Below, piece after piece: positions 2,081 through 11,275 of a DNA stretch of 14,558 nucleotides (position 1 is the first letter of the stretch; every line of letters begins with the position of its first letter). Source of the DNA: Methanospirillum sp. (lineage in GTDB: Archaea; Halobacteriota; Methanomicrobia; Methanomicrobiales; Methanospirillaceae). Position numbers and translations under genes: made by a program. The stretch covers positions 1 through 14,558 of the forward strand of contig NZ_JAJRBM010000005.1 in the NCBI RefSeq assembly GCF_028679455.1, written 5' to 3'. The notes under the pieces are model-generated. The model worked only from the letters and a program-made list of their open reading frames with translations, had not been told where the DNA came from and did not search any database.

Positions 2081-3781
2081 ATGATATGTAATTATTGTGA
2101 ACGGACCTGTGATATCGCGGAAGGGATCTCCGGGTACTGCAGGATGTACCGGAGCGAAGCGGGAGCCATTATTGAGAACTACCCAGATGCCTTTCTCAAC
2201 ATATACCCGGTCTCAAGCGAATCCATTCCGATGCTCCATTTCTATCCGAATAGTATCTTTCTGCTCGTCAGTACCATCGGGTGTAATTTTGCCTGTGATG
2301 GATGCATATCAGAGTTCCAGACCACCAGGCCGGGAACGCTGGAGAAAGTTCTGACCCCGCACACTCCTGATGAGATCCTTGCCATCGCCAGAGAAAGTTC
2401 CTGCAGGGGAATTACCTTCTGTCTCAATGAGCCCACGGTCTCACTCCCTACTTTCATCAGGCTGGCAACCGCTGCAAAAAACGAAGGATTTCTTGTCGGG
2501 TGTTCGAGTAACGGGTACATGACCGAAGATACGATACGGCAGATAATTCCGTTCCTTGATTTTATCAACATCGGGCTGAAAGGGAGTTCTGATGAACGGT
2601 ACCGGGAATGCGGAGTAGTATCCGGAGATCCGGTCTTTCGGAACCTGAAGATCCTGCACGATGCCGGCGTATTTATTGAGGTCTCTATCATGTACCTCTT
2701 TGGGAGAGAAGACGAGATTTATGGGGCTGTTGACCGCATCCGGAATATATCCCAAACGATCCCGATTCAGGTAATGCGGTTCATCGCAACACATGAGGAA
2801 CTCAATGCGTTTCAACCAACTAAAGAGCAGGCCGAGGCGATGTGTAAAACCCTGCAAAAGACTCTCGATCATGTATACCTCTTTAATACTCCGGCAACAA
2901 GCGAACTAGACTCGCGGTGTCCGGTTTGTGGGGAGACGATTGTACACCGGGTCTTTTTTGGCCCGATGGCAGCCCGGGTACTATCCTGCAGATCTGACGG
3001 AGTATGCAACTGCGGATACCGCTATCCTCACCAGGGAGATATCGTCCCGGTTCCAATTGAAGATACCCAGGTTCTTGGTGGGTACCGGTCGATCATGGGT
3101 GCCAAATTTATCGCCTCATTTCTCAACGTACTCGGCATCACCGACGAATCAGAGATTGACCAACTCTGTAACACGGTGATCATCAACGGGTACCTCCGGT
3201 ATCTGCAGGATCAACAGGATTCTCTTGAAACATTCACCTCAATGACCCGGTATCTTGCAGATCTCTCAGGGAGGCATGAGGTGGGTGAACGTCTTATCGG
3301 GTATGCTATGCAGGTGGCAACCGAAATTGCAGAACAGGTGCAAAACGCAGAAAAACCACGGGTATGCGGGGTCTTCTGTCACCCGCTCTCTCCCATGTAT
3401 GCCACCAAGTTTGGCAATACACTTGTAGAGATGACCGGCGGATTAAGCCTGAACAAGCAGGAGAATTTCAGAGAGAGTTCTCATGCTGAGTACACCGTTG
3501 AGGAGTTTAACCGGCTAAATCCTGATATGATCCTCATCTCCGGTCATTTTGCACCGTCTATCGATGATTTTCTCACCACCTGCCGTGATTTAGGCATTTC
3601 GTGCCGGGCGATATCAGAGAAGAAGGTGTATGTCATGGATAGCGAGTATTCTTCAGGGAACCTTGGCTGGCTGATCAGTCTGATGGACGTAGCCAACATT
3701 ATGCATCCTGAATTATTCAGTTATTCCCTTGAGAAAGAGAAGGCCCGGCTTGAAACGTTCATCGCTACCGTATCAGCTTGA
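2081..3781 (+). CDS. Radical SAM enzyme of the PflA/AmrS-like activase subfamily, fused to a C-terminal class III periplasmic-binding-protein-like (FecB/BtuF-type) domain
   Basis: 566 aa. The N-terminal Cys-rich segment CNYCERTC…GYC and the 'HFYPNS…STIGCNFACDGC' CxxxCxxC motif (nt 2282-2305) are typical of PflA/AmrS-type radical SAM enzymes. 'LNEPT' sits where GGEP is expected. A Cys cluster CPVC…C…CNC lies at nt 2918-3013. The C-terminal ~250 aa carry 'PDMILISGHFAPS' and 'KVYVMDSEY…WLISLMDVANIMHPELF', reminiscent of Peripla_BP_2 proteins. The stop overlaps the next start (TGATG, 3779-3783). Confidence 0.8.
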   Translation: MICNYCERTCDIAEGISGYCRMYRSEAGAIIENYPDAFLNIYPVSSESIPMLHFYPNSIFLLVSTIGCNFACDGCISEFQTTRPGTLEKVLTPHTPDEILAIARESSCRGITFCLNEPTVSLPTFIRLATAAKNEGFLVGCSSNGYMTEDTIRQIIPFLDFINIGLKGSSDERYRECGVVSGDPVFRNLKILHDAGVFIEVSIMYLFGREDEIYGAVDRIRNISQTIPIQVMRFIATHEELNAFQPTKEQAEAMCKTLQKTLDHVYLFNTPATSELDSRCPVCGETIVHRVFFGPMAARVLSCRSDGVCNCGYRYPHQGDIVPVPIEDTQVLGGYRSIMGAKFIASFLNVLGITDESEIDQLCNTVIINGYLRYLQDQQDSLETFTSMTRYLADLSGRHEVGERLIGYAMQVATEIAEQVQNAEKPRVCGVFCHPLSPMYATKFGNTLVEMTGGLSLNKQENFRESSHAEYTVEEFNRLNPDMILISGHFAPSIDDFLTTCRDLGISCRAISEKKVYVMDSEYSSGNLGWLISLMDVANIMHPELFSYSLEKEKARLETFIATVSA

Positions 3782-4563
3782 TGAGAATTATGTGTTCCTT
3801 ACATCATACTTCAAAAACTGATCCAGATTTTGATCTTGAATCTGTCTTTGATGCAGATGACTACCTTTACTTTTATGGGGAAGGGCTGAAGGACGAGTAT
3901 ACCGATGAAGAGGTTTCATTCCTTATCAGGGAATTCTGCCTTGATGCACCGAAACAGGTTCTTGACCTTGCCTGTGGACATGGGAGACATGCAAACAGGC
4001 TTGCAGGGTTTGGGTATACGGTTACGGGTGTTGACCAGAGCCGCGATTTTATCGCAATTGCCAGGAGTGATGCAGAGAAAAGAGGAGTCAGTGTCCGGTA
4101 TCTCTGCGGTGATGTGCGAAAGTTTTCAGACCCTGTGGCATATGACGGTGTCATTCATCTGTTCAGTTCCTTTGGATATTTTTCAGATGAGGAGAACGAG
4201 CTGGTGATCAGAAACGTTTCACTGTCACTACGGAAAAACGGAGTGTTTTGTCTTGATATCCTGAATCGTGATGCCTTTTTGAAAAATTATCCTCGTTGCT
4301 CGGTACGGGAGAAGAATACAGATCTGATGATCGACCGGAACCGGTTCGATCCGGTATCGGGGAGATTGTATAACTCACGCATCGTTATCAGAGATGGGAA
4401 GCGAAAAGATACCCCGTTCTTTCTCAGACTCTATAATCCGAATGAGATCCTTAGGATCCTTACCGCAGAAGGACTGGTTGTCACAAAGATCTTCGGAGAC
4501 TGGAAGGGTAATACGTTTGATGAGAATTCAAGGCGGATGATTCTTGTTGCCAGAAAAGAATGA
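3781..4563 (+). CDS. Class I SAM-dependent methyltransferase
   Basis: 260 aa. Motif I 'VLDLACGHGRHA', an acidic residue ending beta2 ('VTGVDQS'), motif II 'CGDVRKF' and 'DGVIHLFSSFGYF'. It is translationally coupled to the upstream radical SAM gene. TTG at 3778 and ATG at 3790 are also possible starts. Confidence 0.85.
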   Translation: MRIMCSLHHTSKTDPDFDLESVFDADDYLYFYGEGLKDEYTDEEVSFLIREFCLDAPKQVLDLACGHGRHANRLAGFGYTVTGVDQSRDFIAIARSDAEKRGVSVRYLCGDVRKFSDPVAYDGVIHLFSSFGYFSDEENELVIRNVSLSLRKNGVFCLDILNRDAFLKNYPRCSVREKNTDLMIDRNRFDPVSGRLYNSRIVIRDGKRKDTPFFLRLYNPNEILRILTAEGLVVTKIFGDWKGNTFDENSRRMILVARKE

Positions 4564-4768: not shown

Positions 4769-6589
4769 ATGGATTTTTTAGTTCGATTGTTGTTAGTCAT
4801 ACTCGGAATACTAGTAATCTGGGTGTTATTGAAAGGACTGATCCTGATTCATGCGAATGAAGTAGGTATTGTAACCAAGTGTATGTTTGGGAAAAAATTA
4901 CCGCAGGGCAAAATTATCGCAACCAAAGGAGAGATTGGTGTTCAAGCGGACATTCTCATGCCTGGGTTATATTACTATATACCCATTATCTGGAGAGTAA
5001 AGCGGGAAAAAGTCATTGAAATCAGGCCGGATAATGTTGGCATTGTCTCTGCGATTGAAGGATTACCCATCCCATCCGGTCGATTGCTTGGTGATGAAGT
5101 GCAAAGCAACTCGTTTCAGGATGCTCGGATGTTTCTTGAAAATGGCGGGTGTAAAGGGCCACAAATAGCAATCCTGAAGCCGGGAACATACCGCGTAAAT
5201 ACCCATATCTTCACGGTATTGGAAAAACCCATTACAGCGGTCCAACAGGGGAAAGTAGGGATTGTGAATGCTCTTGATGGTATCCCGCTTCCTTCCAGGT
5301 TTGCAATTGCTCCGGCTCCGCTCGGAGATCACAGCCATTTCCAGAATGGACAGGTATTTATCCAGAGCAATGGATATAGGGGTACCCAACTTGAGACCCT
5401 GCAACCCGGGGATTACTATATAAACCCACTTCTATTCGATGTTGTCCCAGTGGCCATGACCGTTGTCCCACCAGGAAATGTTGCCGTTATTACCTCAAGC
5501 GTTGGAGAAGAACTTGAAAAATCTCCAGATACTGCTCCTGCTTTAGTAACACCATCCAATTTGAATCAGCCGATTCATGAGAATGCAGAACATCTCCTGA
5601 TTACAGATAAAACCAAAAGAGGTATCCTCCGCAATCCCATTGCGCCAGGGCAATACAATCTGAATACAGCAGCATATCGGAGTGATATTGTACCGACGAG
5701 TGCGGTGACCATTGACTGGGCAAGTCCTGAAGGGGCGAAAGAAACCCTGCAGTTTACCCAGAAAAACAAGGGTGAGAGCGTCTCGGTTGCAGAGTTCTTT
5801 AAATTCGGACAGTTACGCGTCACATCCCAGGATGGATTTCAACTTGAAGTCGATGTCAGACTGATTGTCCGGATTCCTGCGGATAATGCACCATTTGTAA
5901 TCGCACGGTTCGGAAGTGTATACAATCTGATTGAACAGGTAGCCCACCCACTGATCGATGCTTCATTTAGGAACGAGGCAGGAAATCAACTAGCACTGCA
6001 GTTTGTTCATGATAGGACAAAACTTCAACAGACGGCATTCGAAAGGGCACAGGAAGAGTTTAAAAAGTATCAGGTTGAGGTTCAGGGACTATTAATCGCG
6101 TATATTAAAGTGGATGAAACCCTTCTGCAGACCCAGACCCTCAAAGAGATCGCAGTCCAGCAACAGCAGCAGTACCAACAGGAGGCTAAAGCGCAAGAGG
6201 AGAGGATCGCGGTTGCTGAAAAGACAGCTCGTGCCGATATGCAGGGACAGGTTATCGCAGCAAAGTTGTCTATTGATATCAACAAGGATAATGCACAGGC
6301 TGCACGTGAATCCGCATACGGTACCCGTGATGCAACCAAAGCGAATGCTGAAGGAGCCGCATATGCAAATGAACAGGTTGGTATCGGGACCGCGAAAGCA
6401 TACATCGCACAGAAAGAAGCCCTAGGTCCTGAAAATGTGGCGATGTTGCAGGCAATCCAGAAGATTGCAGATGGGAAGATCCTTATCACCCCGAATATTC
6501 TGGTAACCGGTGAGGGTTCTCAGGGAGGTAGTCTCCTTACTGCATACTTCGCTTCGTTGCTTGAACAAACAAAACAGAAAACTCAATAA
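4769..6589 (+). CDS. SPFH/band-7 (flotillin-like) membrane protein with four tandem N-terminal repeat modules
   Basis: 606 aa. N-terminal transmembrane helix (LLLVILGILVIWVLL), the 'LIHANEVGIV' SPFH entry motif, an SPFH core around residues 320-450, and a Q/E/A-rich coiled-coil tail (QQQQQYQQEAKAQEER…) typical of flotillin/YqiK-like proteins. Four ~70-aa repeats share 'VGIV…G.PLP.G…PG.Y..N' motifs. Confidence 0.85.
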   Translation: MDFLVRLLLVILGILVIWVLLKGLILIHANEVGIVTKCMFGKKLPQGKIIATKGEIGVQADILMPGLYYYIPIIWRVKREKVIEIRPDNVGIVSAIEGLPIPSGRLLGDEVQSNSFQDARMFLENGGCKGPQIAILKPGTYRVNTHIFTVLEKPITAVQQGKVGIVNALDGIPLPSRFAIAPAPLGDHSHFQNGQVFIQSNGYRGTQLETLQPGDYYINPLLFDVVPVAMTVVPPGNVAVITSSVGEELEKSPDTAPALVTPSNLNQPIHENAEHLLITDKTKRGILRNPIAPGQYNLNTAAYRSDIVPTSAVTIDWASPEGAKETLQFTQKNKGESVSVAEFFKFGQLRVTSQDGFQLEVDVRLIVRIPADNAPFVIARFGSVYNLIEQVAHPLIDASFRNEAGNQLALQFVHDRTKLQQTAFERAQEEFKKYQVEVQGLLIAYIKVDETLLQTQTLKEIAVQQQQQYQQEAKAQEERIAVAEKTARADMQGQVIAAKLSIDINKDNAQAARESAYGTRDATKANAEGAAYANEQVGIGTAKAYIAQKEALGPENVAMLQAIQKIADGKILITPNILVTGEGSQGGSLLTAYFASLLEQTKQKTQ

Positions 6590-6648: not shown

Positions 6649-6972
6649 ATGAAAAAATCGGGAAGGATACTTCGTTGCCCGGTATGCAATGGCCGGATGG
6701 AATATAAAGCGATCGATTACTGGTGTGACAGACCAAAAAATGTCTGCTCACGGTGTGGGTATGATGGTTCGTTTGCCTTTGAATGGGATAATGATGATCT
6801 TATGGAGGATTATCGGCCAAAGAACGGTAAACAACGAAAGAAAAGGGCAGTATCGATTGAAGATGATAAACTTCGCTCCATTACCCGATTTTATGCAATA
6901 CTCTACATCATTACATTCATTATTTTATGCGGGCTGGCTATCATAGGATTCATCAAGATGAATGTCATGTAA
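6649..6972 (+). CDS. Tail-anchored zinc-ribbon protein (CPVC…CSRC) with a C-terminal transmembrane helix
   Basis: 107 aa. Cys pairs at residues 10/13 and 33/36, a K/R-rich linker, and a C-terminal hydrophobic helix 'FYAILYIITFIILCGLAIIGFI'. It lies 59 nt downstream of the SPFH gene on the same strand with similar A/T-rich composition. Confidence 0.55.
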   Translation: MKKSGRILRCPVCNGRMEYKAIDYWCDRPKNVCSRCGYDGSFAFEWDNDDLMEDYRPKNGKQRKKRAVSIEDDKLRSITRFYAILYIITFIILCGLAIIGFIKMNVM

Positions 6973-6990
6973 GGAATATTATCCTTATCC

Positions 6991-7857
6991 TTACAGGAAT
7001 TCGCTCGTTCCCACATTGTATTTTCTCTGATGTTTTCGAAGAGCAGTCTCCATATCAGGTGCATTCATCACGTCAAACTCAAATTTTTCAGGGTCACTGA
7101 TGGCAACCGACATAACAATGTTGATCCCGTTCTCGAAGAGCACATCAGGGATCAACTGGGCACTGGATCCATAGAGTGCCCGAATCCGGGCATTTTTAGC
7201 ATACCTGACTACCTCTTCAAATGTTCCGTTCACGAGGGTTGAACCGGTGATGATGGCGACATCAGCATCGACAAGTACCTCGCGGTTCTCATCAGCCGGG
7301 TGAACGGTGATTCCTGCCGGGCCATGGGTGATCGTCTCACCGACAATGGTGGTTCTGAATACCTCCGGAGGCCGCTGGTCAGTGACATGGAGTTCCCGGC
7401 ACCGGCCTGCATAACTCTTGATGAGGCCGCCATATCCCACAATAACCAGGTTATCATCACTCCTGACCAGGTCTTTTACTTCAACCCCTGTAGTAAATCC
7501 TTTATCCTGCAGGACTTCATCGGTTACCAGCGGCTGTGAGAGGGCGTTGAGTGCGGTCAAACCGATAGAACGCTGACTGATCGAAGGTTTTGCAATGGTT
7601 TCCCTGGCAACCTCAACGAGTGGTCTGCCGATGCAGGTCTGGAGATATATGAAATCAAGACCGGTCTGGTCAGCGCCGTACCGGGGGTTGTTGTCCTGAA
7701 AACTCATCGCTACCCCGCAGCAGCCGTTCGTTCCGATGACTGCGTTCCATCCCGGATTAAGACCGAATTTCCTGACTCTTCCTTCAGGGAGATCCAGTCG
7801 CTGGTATTCCTGAATGATTTTTTGATATCCTTTCTCAAGGATGGTTTTAGAGTTCAT
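6991..7857 (-). CDS. DUF364/DUF4213-type protein (putative heavy-metal chelation, Rossmann-like domain)
   Basis: 288 aa. 'VIVGYGGLIKSYAGRCRELHVTDQRP' is a glycine-rich Rossmann segment typical of DUF364, with an N-terminal DUF4213-like part. It is transcribed divergently from modA; such proteins are often linked to Mo/W or other metal uptake loci. Confidence 0.65.
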   Translation of the reverse strand: MNSKTILEKGYQKIIQEYQRLDLPEGRVRKFGLNPGWNAVIGTNGCCGVAMSFQDNNPRYGADQTGLDFIYLQTCIGRPLVEVARETIAKPSISQRSIGLTALNALSQPLVTDEVLQDKGFTTGVEVKDLVRSDDNLVIVGYGGLIKSYAGRCRELHVTDQRPPEVFRTTIVGETITHGPAGITVHPADENREVLVDADVAIITGSTLVNGTFEEVVRYAKNARIRALYGSSAQLIPDVLFENGINIVMSVAISDPEKFEFDVMNAPDMETALRKHQRKYNVGTSEFL

Positions 7858-7956: not shown

Positions 7957-8071
7957 ATATATTGTAGTAATCTCTTTTAATTTACCTTAGTATTAATAGT
8001 GTATAGTTCTTTTTACAGTTCGGTTTTTCTCCTTCGATATCATATACGCTATTGACTGTTAGGTGAATTTC

Positions 8072-8878
8072 ATGAAAAAGATTATTACGTACAGTATTAT
8101 TGGACTTTTCATGGTCCTGCTGATTGCACAGATCGGCTGTGTATCAGGGGCAGAAACGAATGCATCTGAAATTACTATCTTTGCAGCAGCATCGCTGACC
8201 GGTGCTATCGGAGATCTTACTCCTATCTTTGAGGCTGCTCACCCAGGGGTAAAGGTTACCTCAAACCTTGATAGTTCAGCAACGCTGGAAACCCAGATCA
8301 AAGAAGGAGCACATGCAGATCTCTTCCTTCCGGCCAGCGACAAGAACCTGAACAACCTGGTAAAAGAGAAGATGATTGATAATTCAAGCATCACTCCGTA
8401 TGCAACCAACAAACTTGCACTCATTGTCCCCGCAGACAACCCGGCAGGTATCACTGGTCTTGCAGATCTGAGCAAAGATGGCGTGAAGATCGTCAGTGAG
8501 ACCTCTGAAGTCCCGGTCAGGAAATACACCGACCAGATGCTGAACAAGACCGTCAATGATACTGCATACGGACAGGCATTTGTTGATGGATTCAAGAAGA
8601 ACATCATCTCAGAAGAGACCAATGTTGCCGGAGCAACCACCAAGGTCTCACTGGGAGAAGCAGATGCAGGAATCACCTATTACTCTGATGTGACCAAGGA
8701 CCTTGCAGACAAGGTAAAGATCATCGAGATTCCGGAAAAACTCAATGTCGTAGCCTCATACAAGGCTGGAATTATTACCGATGCAGAGCATGCCGATATG
8801 GCAAAGGAGTTTGTCACCCTGCTCACCTCTGATGAAGGAAAGACTGTACTGAAAGACTATAAGTTCAGCCCGGTTTGA
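8072..8878 (+). CDS. modA: Molybdate/tungstate ABC transporter substrate-binding protein (ModA type)
   Basis: The 'ITIFAAASLTGA' motif is diagnostic of ModA-family binding proteins. There is a signal peptide with a possible lipobox (IAQIGC), and the RBS AGGTGA (8061-8066) precedes ATG 8072. The GTG at 8063 in the ORF track is a less likely start. Confidence 0.9.
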   Translation: MKKIITYSIIGLFMVLLIAQIGCVSGAETNASEITIFAAASLTGAIGDLTPIFEAAHPGVKVTSNLDSSATLETQIKEGAHADLFLPASDKNLNNLVKEKMIDNSSITPYATNKLALIVPADNPAGITGLADLSKDGVKIVSETSEVPVRKYTDQMLNKTVNDTAYGQAFVDGFKKNIISEETNVAGATTKVSLGEADAGITYYSDVTKDLADKVKIIEIPEKLNVVASYKAGIITDAEHADMAKEFVTLLTSDEGKTVLKDYKFSPV

Positions 8879-9710: not shown

Positions 9711-10523
9711 ATGAAATCAGGAAGCATATATTCTGGAATAAGAAATAAACAGATTTCAAAAATATTATTGGGCCTGGTAGTACTCATCACGATACTCTTC
9801 TTCACGCTTCCCCTGCTCTCACTCCTTCTGCGTATAACTCCGGATGAGTTCATCGCTGCAATCCTGAAACCTGAGGTTCAAAGTGCCATATATCTGTCAC
9901 TGCTCACCGCAGCTGCATCAACCGTGGTTATCGTCCTGATTGGAACGCCGCTTGCGTACCTGAATGCACGGGTTTCCTATCGTGGCAGGGACTTCGTTGA
10001 AACCCTCTTAGATCTCCCGATAGTTCTCCCCCCGTCAGTAGCCGGACTTGCGCTGCTGGTTCTGTTTGGAAGACGTGGTCTTATCGGTGCATACCTGAAC
10101 GATGTAGGAATCGCAATCATCTTCACCACCTTTGCGGTGGTACTTGCCCAGGTCTTTGTTGCCGGGCCGTTGTATATCAGACAGGCAAAAACTGCCTTTG
10201 CGATGGTGGATCAGGTTTATGAATCAGCATCACGAACGCTTGGGGCTTCCCCGCTGATCACCTTCGTGAAAGTGACCATTCCGCTTGCCTGGACTGGTCT
10301 CGTTTCAGGAGTAATATTAGCATTTGCCCGGGCTATCGGAGAGTTTGGAGCAACGATTATGGTGGCGGGAAATCTGCCAGGAAAAACTCAGACCATGCCA
10401 CTTGCAATCTATGGATTGATGCAGAGTGATCTTACTGCATCAATAGCCCTTTCTCTGGTCCTTATCAGTATCTCCTGCATTATTCTGATTACGATACGGT
10501 TGCTTGCCGGGAGGTCTGCCTGA
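9711..10523 (+). CDS. modB: Molybdate/tungstate ABC transporter permease
   Basis: 270 aa, polytopic. The ABC permease EAA-like loop 'ESASRTLGASPLITFVKVTIPLA' is present. The stop overlaps the modC start (TGATG at 10521-10525). Confidence 0.9.
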   Translation: MKSGSIYSGIRNKQISKILLGLVVLITILFFTLPLLSLLLRITPDEFIAAILKPEVQSAIYLSLLTAAASTVVIVLIGTPLAYLNARVSYRGRDFVETLLDLPIVLPPSVAGLALLVLFGRRGLIGAYLNDVGIAIIFTTFAVVLAQVFVAGPLYIRQAKTAFAMVDQVYESASRTLGASPLITFVKVTIPLAWTGLVSGVILAFARAIGEFGATIMVAGNLPGKTQTMPLAIYGLMQSDLTASIALSLVLISISCIILITIRLLAGRSA

Positions 10524-11275
10524 TGCTTACTGCACGAATAGAAAAACAGCTCCGGGATTACCCGTTGATGATCGATCTCACGGTAAACCGTGGGGAAGTA
10601 CTGGTTCTTCTCGGTACAAACGGGTCCGGGAAATCAACGGTGCTCAATCTTCTCGCCGGACTCCTGACACCTGATAAGGGAGAGATCTCGCTCAATGGGA
10701 TACCGATATTCAGGAGTGAGGAGGGGATATCCTGCCCGCCTGAAGAGCGGAATATAGGATATGTCTTTCAGGATTATGCTCTCTTTCCTCATATGACCGT
10801 GTTTGATAATATTGCCTATGGTCTGAAGATGCGAAAGGTTCCCAAAGAAATAATAGAGAATCAGATACAGGCAACTCTACACGATCTTGGTATCTCCCAT
10901 GTTCGAAATGAACGGGTGACCAACCTTTCCGGAGGACAACGGCAGCGGGTGGCTCTTGCGAGAGCCCTTATTATCCAGCCGCATCTGTTACTCCTGGATG
11001 AACCTCTCACGGCTCTTGATCCTCAGGCCAGGGATAAGATCAGAATCGAACTCCGAGAGCAACTGATTACCAGCAATCAGCCATCAATTCTGGTCACGCA
11101 CTCCATAAAAGATGCCCAGATCATTGGAGATAAGGTAATAATGCTGGAAAAAGGATCCGTTATCTGGACCGGGAGACCTGAGGAACTTGAATCCGGAAGC
11201 GGGGTTCCTGACCTGGAACCTCTCAAGTGTGAGTGCGACGAGTACCGGGATTTTGGAGCGATTGCGATAGACTGA
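10523..11275 (+). CDS. modC: Molybdate/tungstate ABC transporter ATP-binding protein lacking the C-terminal TOBE domain
   Basis: Walker A 'GTNGSGKST', ABC signature 'LSGGQRQRVALARAL', Walker B 'LLLLDEP' and the H-loop 'LVTHS'. At 250 aa it has no room for the C-terminal TOBE domain found in ~350-aa ModC proteins. Confidence 0.9.
   Translation: MLTARIEKQLRDYPLMIDLTVNRGEVLVLLGTNGSGKSTVLNLLAGLLTPDKGEISLNGIPIFRSEEGISCPPEERNIGYVFQDYALFPHMTVFDNIAYGLKMRKVPKEIIENQIQATLHDLGISHVRNERVTNLSGGQRQRVALARALIIQPHLLLLDEPLTALDPQARDKIRIELREQLITSNQPSILVTHSIKDAQIIGDKVIMLEKGSVIWTGRPEELESGSGVPDLEPLKCECDEYRDFGAIAID

Follow-up and report, generated by a model that had tools for sequence, protein, structure and literature searches.

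Membrane-anchored cages of the SPFH family share a common layout. In the structures that we used for comparison, i.e., HflK/HflC (7vhp), QmcA (8z5g), stomatin (9oh9) and PH1511, prohibitin (9o9z), erlin (9o9u), and flotillin (9l3g), an N-terminal anchor is followed directly by one SPFH1 lobe and then by SPFH2, a coiled-coil helix, and a conserved C-terminal strand. The vault has been described as the exception among SPFH assemblies, as it has no membrane association (PMC12624060). According to PMC12915596, repeats R1 to R9 of MVP are homologous to SPFH1 domains, the MVP shoulder corresponds to SPFH2, and the cap helix to the coiled coil; in recent vault papers, the array of repeats is treated as a peculiarity of vaults.

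Prokaryotic relatives of both kinds have been reported. In ECOD, the N-terminal lobe of archaeal SPFH proteins is placed in the MVP-repeat H-group (PMC13607799), and stomatin-like archaeal proteins are classified as one MVP repeat plus SPFH/Band 7. The same 2026 survey reported a single MVP-type repeat in archaeal SPFH proteins versus eight counted in the eukaryotic vault (PMC13607799). As far as the sections of the reports considered here go, several MVP-type repeats lie ahead of a shoulder of the Band 7 type and a helical region in the Asgard archaeal homologs of MVP, which have five repeat domains (Kostlbacher et al. 2026, PMC12962969), and in "MVP-like" proteins of bacteria, Borgs, and phages (PMC3762200; bioRxiv 10.1101/872010, 10.1101/2024.11.05.622173, 10.1101/2023.11.10.566534). 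Published bacterial "MVP homologs" include A9AUD4, H6L4P8, A1ZGE7, H8MNI3, and A6FXM1. In those sections, the proteins were identified as homologs or structural best matches of eukaryotic MVP (PMC12962969, PMC3762200), and they were not described as membrane anchored.

An SPFH protein with tandem modules behind its membrane anchor

The window, which is the whole 14,558-nucleotide stretch of DNA that was analyzed, contains an open reading frame at positions 4769..6589 of the plus strand (stop codon included) that encodes an SPFH-family membrane protein of 606 residues. The original prediction placed four tandem modules between the transmembrane helix and the SPFH core of this protein (positions 4853-5716, residues 29-316), and BLASTP, hhalign, and a repeat HMM all bore this out. 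The predicted transmembrane helix (residues 2-22, 4772..4834, plus strand, as are all parts below) corresponded to the most hydrophobic 19-residue stretch of the protein, was modeled as a helix by AF2 (pLDDT 87-89), and was predicted to be an N-out/C-in signal anchor; as far as prediction goes, it supplies the membrane anchor that SPFH proteins carry N-terminal to the SPFH domain. Next came module R1 (residues 29-86, 4853..5026), a short, membrane-proximal copy of 58 residues with no helix insert (pLDDT about 90), followed by two full internal copies, R2 (residues 87-159, 5027..5245; 73 residues, short helix at 119-124, pLDDT >90) and R3 (residues 160-234, 5246..5470; 75 residues, short helix at 194-199), and by the degenerate copy R4 (residues 235-316, 5471..5716). 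These boundaries matched the predicted ones, the motifs PGLYYY, PGTYRVN, PGDYYIN, and PGQYNLN were all present, and VGIV/VAVI was found at every restart.

Behind the modules, a linker predicted to be disordered (residues 317-346, 5717..5806; pLDDT <50 over 312-346) led into the SPFH2 α/β core (residues 347-449, 5807..6115). Then came a Q/E/A-rich AF2 helix of about 118 residues (450-567, 6116..6469), the counterpart of CC1/CC2 in SPFH cages or of the vault cap helix, and a C-terminal tail (residues 568-606, 6470..6586) with a conserved GKIxITPxVLVTG strand. Among 34 orthologs, P575 and G581 of this strand were invariant and I573, T574, and V579 were nearly so. The SPFH domain was therefore followed, as in other SPFH proteins, by a long helix and a short conserved element around I573-G581. 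By analogy with the HflK/C, erlin, and vault caps (PMC12915596, PMC12624060), the strand is a candidate cap-closing element.

The only Pfam family detected on the protein at E ≤ 1 was Band_7 (PF01145), which scored 63 bits, above its gathering cutoff, and was confined to residues 307-476 and profile positions 37-175. Searches of Pfam with single repeats returned nothing at E ≤ 10, and tRNA and Rfam scans of the window gave no match.

The four modules are homologous to one another

In single-sequence BLASTP, with E-values computed against the 606-residue protein itself, R2 and R3 were 36% identical over 74 columns (51 bits, E 1e-13), R1 matched R3 at 25 bits (E 1e-4), and R3 matched R4 at 25 bits over 80 columns (E 3e-4). 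The internal similarity anticipated by the original prediction was also significant in hhalign comparisons based on a 34-sequence family alignment. Here, the R2-R3 probability was 99.6% (E 9e-24, 73 columns), R1-R3 and R1-R2 reached 97.2% and 92.5%, respectively, and R3-R4 reached 59% (P 9e-5, collinear over 71 columns), while control comparisons of each repeat with the SPFH core gave P values of at least 0.035. Ten giant relatives, of which those named are bacterial, served as the sole source of a repeat HMM, which was hence independent of the family of the 606-residue protein and recovered residues 30-85 (7e-12), 88-158 (4e-28), and 161-232 (3e-22), plus a partial match at 278-304 (2e-3) in the fourth place. 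Repeat HMM scores were 65, 96, and 97 bits for R1, R2, and R3, respectively. Over R4, the repeat HMM aligned to residues 236-306 (E 3.6e-4), and R4 alone scored 7 bits with the family repeat HMM; it carries an insertion of about 40 residues (250-290, pLDDT 50-60) and retains its strands in the AF2 model. The AF2 secondary-structure pattern was identical from module to module. These results showed that the four modules are homologous, that R1 to R3 are unambiguous repeats, and that R4 is real but degenerate.

There is next to no chance that the "repeats" are no duplication but a short PG-x-Y motif that happens to recur in a β-rich region. Such recurrence would fit the low score of R4 alone and the fact that the motif yields chance PDB matches (PsaE and leukocidins), but it was refuted by the 36% identity of R2 and R3 and their hhalign probability, by the HMM from unrelated giants, which recovered these four units and their boundaries, by the shared AF2 pattern, and by relatives in which 12-13 units of 73 residues lie back to back. 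A recent duplication was likewise ruled out by the absence of tandem or direct nucleotide repeats at the DNA level. R2 was 49-62% identical to R2 of the orthologs and only about 33% identical to R3, which indicated that the duplication is old and was fixed in the family.

The modules were predicted to resemble the N-terminal β-hairpin part of an SPFH domain, and the position of the Band_7 match, a Geomonas relative, and structural matches all agreed with this. Because the Band_7 match begins at profile position 37, R4 fills the place of the missing positions 1-36. In a seven-module relative from Geomonas (P0130 cluster, WP_224962355.1), Band_7 began to match at residue 513 (profile position 18), which lies within the final, partial repeat (residues 500-538, repeat-HMM positions 33-71). 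R4 is thus the SPFH1 element of the SPFH domain itself and not an addition to it. The proposed fourfold reiteration therefore held for the number of homologous modules, but the number of extra modules is three.

The repeat family is widespread and variable in copy number

More than 1188 homologs of the 606-residue protein were found, and most of the 120 listed were full length (about 583-680 residues, 54-91% identity); genome loci were confirmed for 119 homologs. The four-module ortholog was present in methanogens, Bathyarchaeia, Thermoplasmata, and many anaerobic bacteria. When the repeat profile was compared with 1.84 billion representatives, 1480 clusters at 50% identity were recovered, with 2-15 matched stretches per repeat protein and, in some relatives, arrays of up to 12-13 back-to-back units with a 73-residue period. 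The family survey suggested with the original prediction thus revealed a large, conserved, and uncharacterized family in which the module copy number is evolutionarily dynamic.

Band_7 was detected in 66 of 68 scanned relatives (60/61 and 6/7), and the repeats lay upstream of the SPFH core in the 96 relatives in which both were detected. One relative in the set of seven showed no SPFH core and is possibly incomplete. A hydrophobic N-terminal segment preceded the first repeat in 71 of the 96; most repeat proteins had a transmembrane anchor and some did not. STAND/AAA ATPase domains were found in some relatives and a peptidoglycan-binding domain in one, and several giants gave weak whole-protein matches to the CshA adhesin-repeat family of Pfam. 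The module is, in short, a widespread accessory of variable copy number that occurs almost only ahead of Band_7.

The gene neighborhoods were not conserved. After all flanking open reading frames were clustered, no real family was present in more than 10 of 81 loci, no conserved NfeD or protease partner was found at these loci, and no paralogous or heteromeric partner gene was found nearby. The larger clusters of flanking open reading frames consisted of antisense frames within the gene itself. A homolog with 86% identity had a wholly different gene context.

Like the canonical cage proteins, the 606-residue protein has an N-terminal anchor, SPFH1-SPFH2, a coiled-coil helix, and a conserved C-terminal strand; unlike them, it has four SPFH1 lobes in tandem behind the anchor. 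It was not assigned to HflK/HflC since the hflC model (NCBIfam TIGR01932) scored 14.7 bits against a cutoff of 134.4 (E 0.01, residues 6-79 only) and no paralogous neighbor was present. The JGI annotation names it a flotillin/YqiK-type protein. Against this name stood the roughly 280 residues of repeats that separate the anchor from the Band_7 match, the lack of a further Pfam domain, and the lack of a conserved NfeD-family (yqiJ-like) neighbor, and no collinear fit to ordinary YqiK-type proteins without duplication was found. The archaeal stomatin-like proteins of the ECOD survey share the building block, namely, an SPFH1 lobe before the core; they have it once, whereas the 606-residue protein has it four times and relatives have it up to 15 times.

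The predicted module rod resembles the vault repeat array

In the full-length AF2 model, pLDDT was about 80-94 (mostly about 90) over residues 1-240, and a repeat-only model had a pLDDT of 82.9 and a pTM of 0.73. The modules built a stacked β rod. A Foldseek search with the repeat-only model returned MVP at ranks 1-15 (E 5.5e-5 to 7e-3, 230-304 columns) and SPFH cage proteins at ranks 16-40 (about 70-90 columns). Overall, the SPFH matches that ranked behind MVP covered 70-104 residues, or about one module, and HflC and HflK were among the structural matches. On MVP, 199 residues superposed at 3.7 Å as a rigid multimodule rod; the TM-scores, which were normalized to the query and obtained with predicted rather than solved query coordinates, were modest (0.36-0.46). 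The predicted rod superposes better on MVP repeats than on anything else in the PDB and, as modeled, its closest solved analog is the vault repeat array.

In MVP (PDB 3gf5, 4v60/4hl8, 6bp7, 9bw5), the parts also come in the same overall order: small tandem β modules lie N-terminal to a shoulder of the SPFH type, behind which come a long helix and then a short element at the C terminus. The two proteins differ in module number and size (four of 58-82 residues versus nine of about 55 in MVP), in the short extra helix of R2 and R3, and in the shoulder, which matched Band_7 and not MVP_shoulder. They also differ at the N terminus. The free, soluble end of MVP makes the vault waist, whereas a predicted transmembrane helix leads directly into R1. 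The repeat family thus appears to be a prokaryotic counterpart of the vault that is tethered to a membrane. [quoted passage not shown]

Sequence comparisons gave a different picture. The Vault, Vault_2-4 (PF01505, PF17794-6), and MVP_shoulder (PF11978) models had no match on the 606-residue protein at E ≤ 1 or on the repeats at E ≤ 10, and a Vault domain was found in 0 of 68 scanned relatives. The repeat HMM did not match human MVP (100% identical in sequence to PDB 11dr_A), and a profile of 831 repeats reached E 0.22, with only a PGxY...V stretch aligned. Comparison by hhalign with profiles of MVP R1 to R9, which were shallow (cut from tetrapod homologs only, all at least 67% identical), gave no match (best P 0.012). 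In a control, several MVP repeats likewise missed each other, so these comparisons leave room for homology between the module and the MVP repeat. Given the lack of sequence-level similarity, common descent with the vault array is unproven, and module amplification may have been independent of that in MVP. Sequence comparison with PDB chains found no relative, whether the query was the entire protein, the family profile, or the repeat profile; toxofilin, TM0844, PsaE, and leukocidin appeared as chance matches.

It is very improbable that the 606-residue protein is a true MVP-family member that closes a free vault by waist-to-waist pairing of N termini of half shells. The structural ranking, the MVP-like order of parts, and the reported prokaryotic MVP homologs (PMC3762200, PMC12962969) speak for membership, but the vault models and profiles contradict it, and the end that would form the waist is predicted to be embedded in a membrane.

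Proposed assembly and orientation

The explanation that we favor, and consider reasonably probable, is that SPFH1 was amplified in tandem and that the protein assembles at the cytoplasmic side of the membrane into a homo-oligomeric SPFH cage, with a wall made taller by the extra modules. By analogy with every SPFH protein with a solved assembly, the 606-residue protein would form a large ring or cage, in which the transmembrane helices would fence a membrane patch and R1 would sit on the membrane. R2 to R4 would pack laterally with neighboring subunits in the manner of MVP repeats in the barrel of the vault. This would lift the SPFH2 "shoulder" and the dome of helices a few nanometers further from the membrane (our own estimate from vault dimensions) and so enlarge the enclosed volume. 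In the cell, the protein would do what SPFH proteins generally do, namely, sequester or organize membrane proteins or lipids inside the fenced compartment; as no neighboring gene is conserved, gene context points to no specific client.

The model was poor over R4 and over residues 312-346, and if this linker is flexible, the repeat rod might not be coupled to the SPFH2 ring. In a rival explanation, the modules would be a flexible stalk or binding sites for a client protein, a lipid, or a polymer, with the SPFH part alone making the ring. The 35-residue low-confidence linker between R4 and SPFH2, a copy number of 2-15 (typical of spacer or adhesin-like repeats), and the CshA matches of the giants are in line with a stalk. 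We nevertheless regard it as quite unlikely because the intermodule geometry was confidently predicted and the rod superposed rigidly on MVP, because the same fold N-terminal to an SPFH shoulder is the barrel wall in MVP (PMC12915596), and because R1 lies a few residues behind the transmembrane helix, as does SPFH1 in ring-forming SPFH proteins.

We infer that the bulk of the protein faces the cytoplasm from the charge distribution around the transmembrane helix, which gave a weak positive-inside signal, from a relative (P0123) that genuinely lacks the helix and has in-frame stops ahead of its ATG, and from the STAND/AAA ATPase domains of some relatives. In 34 aligned orthologs, the N-terminal flank of the helix had no K/R, and the C-terminal flank had a mean of 1.35 K/R within 12 residues and as many acidic as basic residues. 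In the opposite orientation, the N terminus would be cytoplasmic, and the repeats, SPFH domain, and helix would be external, like periplasmic HflK/C, with the modules as a spacer that lifts the ring toward the S-layer or cell wall. The HflC and HflK structural matches, the weak hflC match, the balance of acidic and basic residues behind the helix, the peptidoglycan-binding domain, and the weak adhesin-repeat matches would suit this orientation. It is unlikely, however, as none of the 34 orthologs has K/R ahead of the helix and most have it behind, there is no signal-peptide-like n-region, relatives that have the same modules but no transmembrane helix must be cytoplasmic, and the ATPase domains need cytoplasmic ATP. 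In addition, the hflC match was far below the cutoff and included the compositionally biased transmembrane segment.

The repeat family, found in methanogens and many anaerobic bacteria, unites a transmembrane anchor with a tandem array of the fold on which the vault barrel is built. If the cytoplasmic cage is correct, module number would offer a way to tune the height of an SPFH scaffold, the question of where the vault barrel came from would become directly testable, and the family would provide a natural set of size-graded protein cages. A bolder idea, possible but doubtful, is that the family represents a prokaryotic "membrane-capped half vault," i.e., tall cages anchored by a ring of transmembrane helices with an SPFH1 barrel wall, that relatives without the helix (up to 15 modules) form free vault-like shells, and that these proteins are the missing intermediate between the SPFH cage and the eukaryotic vault. 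In that case, the barrel of the vault would go back to an amplification of this kind, or else this solution would have evolved on two occasions. Even if the modules form no wall, this is an uncharacterized and widespread SPFH architecture that is as yet undescribed in Pfam.

A rough figure for cage size was also obtained. As the model leaves the CC1/CC2 boundary undefined, a range was derived from the CC1-length regression for SPFH assemblies (y = 0.1782x + 10.22; PMC12624060), and it corresponded, very roughly, to 18-29 subunits.

Tandem modules ahead of the SPFH core

The SPFH-family ORF of the window (4769..6589, + strand) encoded a protein of 606 aa, and the interval 4853-5716 corresponded exactly to its residues 29-316. 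Band_7/SPFH was the single significant Pfam domain (63.3 bits; cut-off, 23.6). Its match at residues 307-476 covered only profile positions 37-175, so that positions 1-36 of the SPFH model were left unaccounted for. Pfam gave no match to the roughly 280 residues that separate the N-terminal hydrophobic helix from the core, and the sole NCBIfam match on the protein was hflC over residues 6-79, far below threshold.

The original prediction placed four tandem repeats in this interval (here R1, R2, R3, and R4, taken as residues 29-86, 87-159, 160-234, and 235-316, respectively), and BLASTP, hhalign profiles, and an independent repeat HMM agreed that they were real. When the originally proposed segments were compared with the protein via BLASTP, R2 and R3 aligned across 74 columns with 36% identity (51 bits), and R1-R3 and R3-R4 each scored 25 bits. 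In addition, an alignment of 34 full-length homologues (A1) was cut at the originally proposed boundaries and the resulting profiles were compared with hhalign, which gave 99.6% for R2-R3 (E 9e-24), 97.2% for R1-R3, 92.5% for R1-R2, and 59% for R3-R4 (P 9e-5, collinear across 71 columns); control comparisons of each repeat with the core yielded P >= 0.035 in all cases. When copies of R1, R2, and R3, each taken from 12 family members, were stacked, they produced a clean 73-position consensus, xxxVGIVxxxDGxPLPxGxIIA...FQDxxxF...GxxGxQxxTLxPGxYxINPxxFxVxxxxVxxVP, in which R1 was without the central helix-bearing insert. The repeat HMM was built only from ten giants, relatives with many tandem copies of the module (the named ones being bacterial), and was thus independent of the family of the window gene. 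It matched the window protein at 30-85, 88-158, and 161-232 and partially at 278-304.

No nucleotide-level repeat was found in the gene, and R2 was 49-62% identical to the R2 of orthologues versus ~33% identical to R3. Together, these comparisons indicated that the duplication is older than the radiation of the family.

Each repeat had also been likened to the N-terminal beta-hairpin of an SPFH domain, and this likeness was borne out at two points. R4 occupied the exact place of Band_7 profile positions 1-36. Moreover, the seven-module Geomonas relative P0130 carried six clean repeats with a 73-aa period and then an incomplete seventh (residues 500-538; positions 33-71 of the repeat HMM), which overlapped the start of the Pfam Band_7 match (residue 513 is profile position 18). 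This overlap argued that the C-terminal half of the repeat (PGxYxxN..F.V) and the 'pGlhf..P....v' hairpin at the start of every Band_7 domain are one and the same element. R4 was the native SPFH1 element (the N-terminal beta lobe), and the additions were R1-R3.

Predicted fold and relation to the major vault protein

An AlphaFold2 model based on A1 contained a transmembrane (TM) helix at 2-22, with R1 beginning within a few residues of it, and four modules that shared one strand pattern. The pLDDT was about 80-94 (mostly ~90) across residues 1-240. An insertion in R4 at 250-290 had low confidence; R4 was followed by a disordered linker (312-346), after which came the alpha/beta core of the SPFH domain (347-447), a ~118-residue helix (450-567), and a short tail. 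Residues 23-320 were also modeled alone (pLDDT 82.9, pTM 0.73). In a Foldseek search of 350,542 chains, ranks 1-15 were all major vault protein (MVP; E 5.5e-5 to 7e-3, 230-304 aligned columns), and ranks 16-40 were all SPFH cage proteins aligned over about 70-90 columns, approximately the length of one module. The models and the Foldseek ranks indicated that the modules are predicted to have the SPFH1/MVP-repeat fold and to be arranged in a rod, as in MVP.

Sequence comparisons gave no link to MVP. Neither the window protein, its repeats, nor the 68 scanned relatives matched the Vault or MVP_shoulder Pfam domains. The repeat HMM found nothing in human MVP (a sequence identical to PDB chain 11dr_A), even at a search space of one, and an 831-repeat profile aligned only to the PGTY...V stretch with which MVP R3 ends (E 0.22). 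Against profiles of MVP R1-R9 from 15 tetrapod MVPs, the repeats of the present family reached P 0.012 at best. In a control comparison, the repeats of MVP itself found one another only inside the subgroups R3/4/5/7 and R2/6. Because of this, the missing match would be compatible with homology to MVP, yet it lends no support to membership in the MVP family.

The MVP repeats have already been termed homologous to SPFH1 (PMC12915596), and ECOD assigns the N-terminal lobe seen in archaeal SPFH proteins to its MVP-repeat group (PMC13607799). Earlier reports describe MVP-like proteins with multiple repeats in some bacteria, Asgard archaea (five repeats), Borgs, and phages. Literature text searches, with incomplete coverage, returned no account of SPFH proteins that combine a TM anchor with tandem modules of the SPFH1/MVP fold, nor of their range of 2-15 copies. 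This combination was apparently new, with priority resting on those searches. [quoted passage not shown]

Distribution and copy number

Searches for homologues, genome loci, and repeat-profile matches indicated that the repeats were widespread. There were >1188 whole-protein homologues; among the 120 listed, most were about 583-680 aa with 92-100% coverage, and their database names were only 'SPFH domain-containing', 'YqiK' or 'HflC-like'. The genome scan confirmed 119 loci. Archaeal hosts were Methanospirillum (90% identity), Methanoregula, Methanocellaceae, Bathyarchaeia, and Methanomassiliicoccales/Thermoplasmata; bacterial hosts, at 47-55% identity, were Chloroflexota, Thermodesulfobacteriota/Smithella, Nitrospirota, Zixibacteria, Kiritimatiellia, Verrucomicrobiota, Acidobacteriota, and CPR. 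Four-module full-length orthologues (L002-L081) occurred patchily in methanogenic and other anaerobic archaea and in at least eight bacterial phyla, including CPR. This patchy spread across both domains at 47-55% identity suggests horizontal exchange among anaerobes in anoxic sediments and peat.

The repeat profile alone matched 1480 proteins among 1.84 billion cluster representatives, 844 of them at E <= 1e-10, and each protein had 2-15 matched stretches. Band_7 was present in 66 of the 68 relatives scanned with Pfam, several of which had C-terminal VWA domains and a few STAND/AAA ATPase domains. In the 96 matches having both repeats and core, the repeat count was 2-14 (modes, 3-4), and 71 had a hydrophobic N-terminal segment ahead of the first repeat. 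Five A1 orthologues (P0069, P0094, P0102, P0111, and P0119) started with 'MFGFKLV...' or 'MSFFGF...', just past the point where their relatives have the TM helix. Their start codons have probably been mis-called, and TM-less counts from protein databases would therefore be inflated.

The giants P0123, P0121, P0122, and P0127 were 1300-1800 aa long, with 9-15 tandem modules followed by Band_7 and a C-terminal VWA domain. Where placement was possible, they were cyanobacterial (P0121, Symploca; P0127, Iningainema; P0123, with a GUN4 neighbor). The internal repeats of giants were up to 70-75% identical to one another, which indicates that amplification is recent and ongoing in them. P0123 (L082:3001-8382; 1793 aa, 14-15 modules) had in-frame stop codons just upstream of its ATG, and so at least one giant is genuinely TM-less. 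Next at this locus were a further VWA gene and a gene for a caspase-like Peptidase_C14. A few of the 61 repeat-family relatives in another alignment (A4) contained STAND NTPase (nSTAND1, AAA_16), other AAA ATPase domains or zinc ribbons. Judging from the length of their C-terminal tails, these relatives are probably those that lack the TM helix (starts like MGIPGLVEIGADEVGIV), and the pattern resembles that of conflict or signalling systems.

Proposed assembly and orientation

All SPFH proteins with a solved assembly form rings or cages in which SPFH1 lies at the membrane and SPFH2 (the alpha-beta core) above it, CC1 helices make up the wall, and CC2 together with a C-terminal beta strand forms the cap; a special case is MVP, in which nine SPFH1-like repeats make the barrel below the shoulder (PMC12915596; PMC12624060). 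The window protein shared all elements of the solved cages and had three additional SPFH1 modules. The most economical reading, by analogy, is a homo-oligomeric cage anchored in the membrane, in which R1-R4 would heighten the wall; its shape would be that of a half vault with the membrane as cap. When subunit number was estimated from CC1 length with a published regression (y = 0.1782x + 10.22; PMC12624060), the result was about 29 subunits with CC1 taken as the whole 450-552 helix and about 18 with CC1 stopping at the low-confidence stretch near residue 495.

In all 34 aligned orthologues, K/R was absent from the N-terminal flank of the TM helix, and K/R followed the helix in most. This pattern, together with the TM-less and ATPase-fused relatives, weakly favors an N-out/C-in orientation with the bulk of the protein in the cytoplasm.

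Gene neighbourhood

ORF clustering across 81 loci revealed no conserved neighbor, as no real neighbor family occurred in >10 loci, and an 86%-identical homologue had wholly different neighbors. Upstream of the window gene was a radical SAM/class I SAM methyltransferase pair (2081-4563, + strand, radical SAM gene first). The TTG start of the methyltransferase overlapped the radical SAM stop by 4 nt, so the two genes probably form an operon. At its C-terminus, the radical SAM protein (566 aa) weakly resembled a periplasmic binding protein (Peripla_BP_2, E 5e-4, below the cut-off).

Downstream, the SPFH gene was followed after 60 nt by a 107-aa ORF (6649-6972, + strand). This ORF had no Pfam match and encoded a small membrane protein with a zinc-ribbon motif of four cysteines at the N-terminus (CPVC...CSRC) and a hydrophobic helix at the C-terminus. 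A functional link with the SPFH gene is unlikely because no equivalent was conserved beside SPFH homologues. Further downstream, a DUF364/DUF4213 'heavy-metal chelation' gene (6991-7857, - strand) faced the gene for an SBP_bac_11 binding protein (8063-8878), which was followed by a ~830-nt stretch without annotated function and then by the permease (9711-10523) and ATPase (10523-11275) of an ABC transporter.
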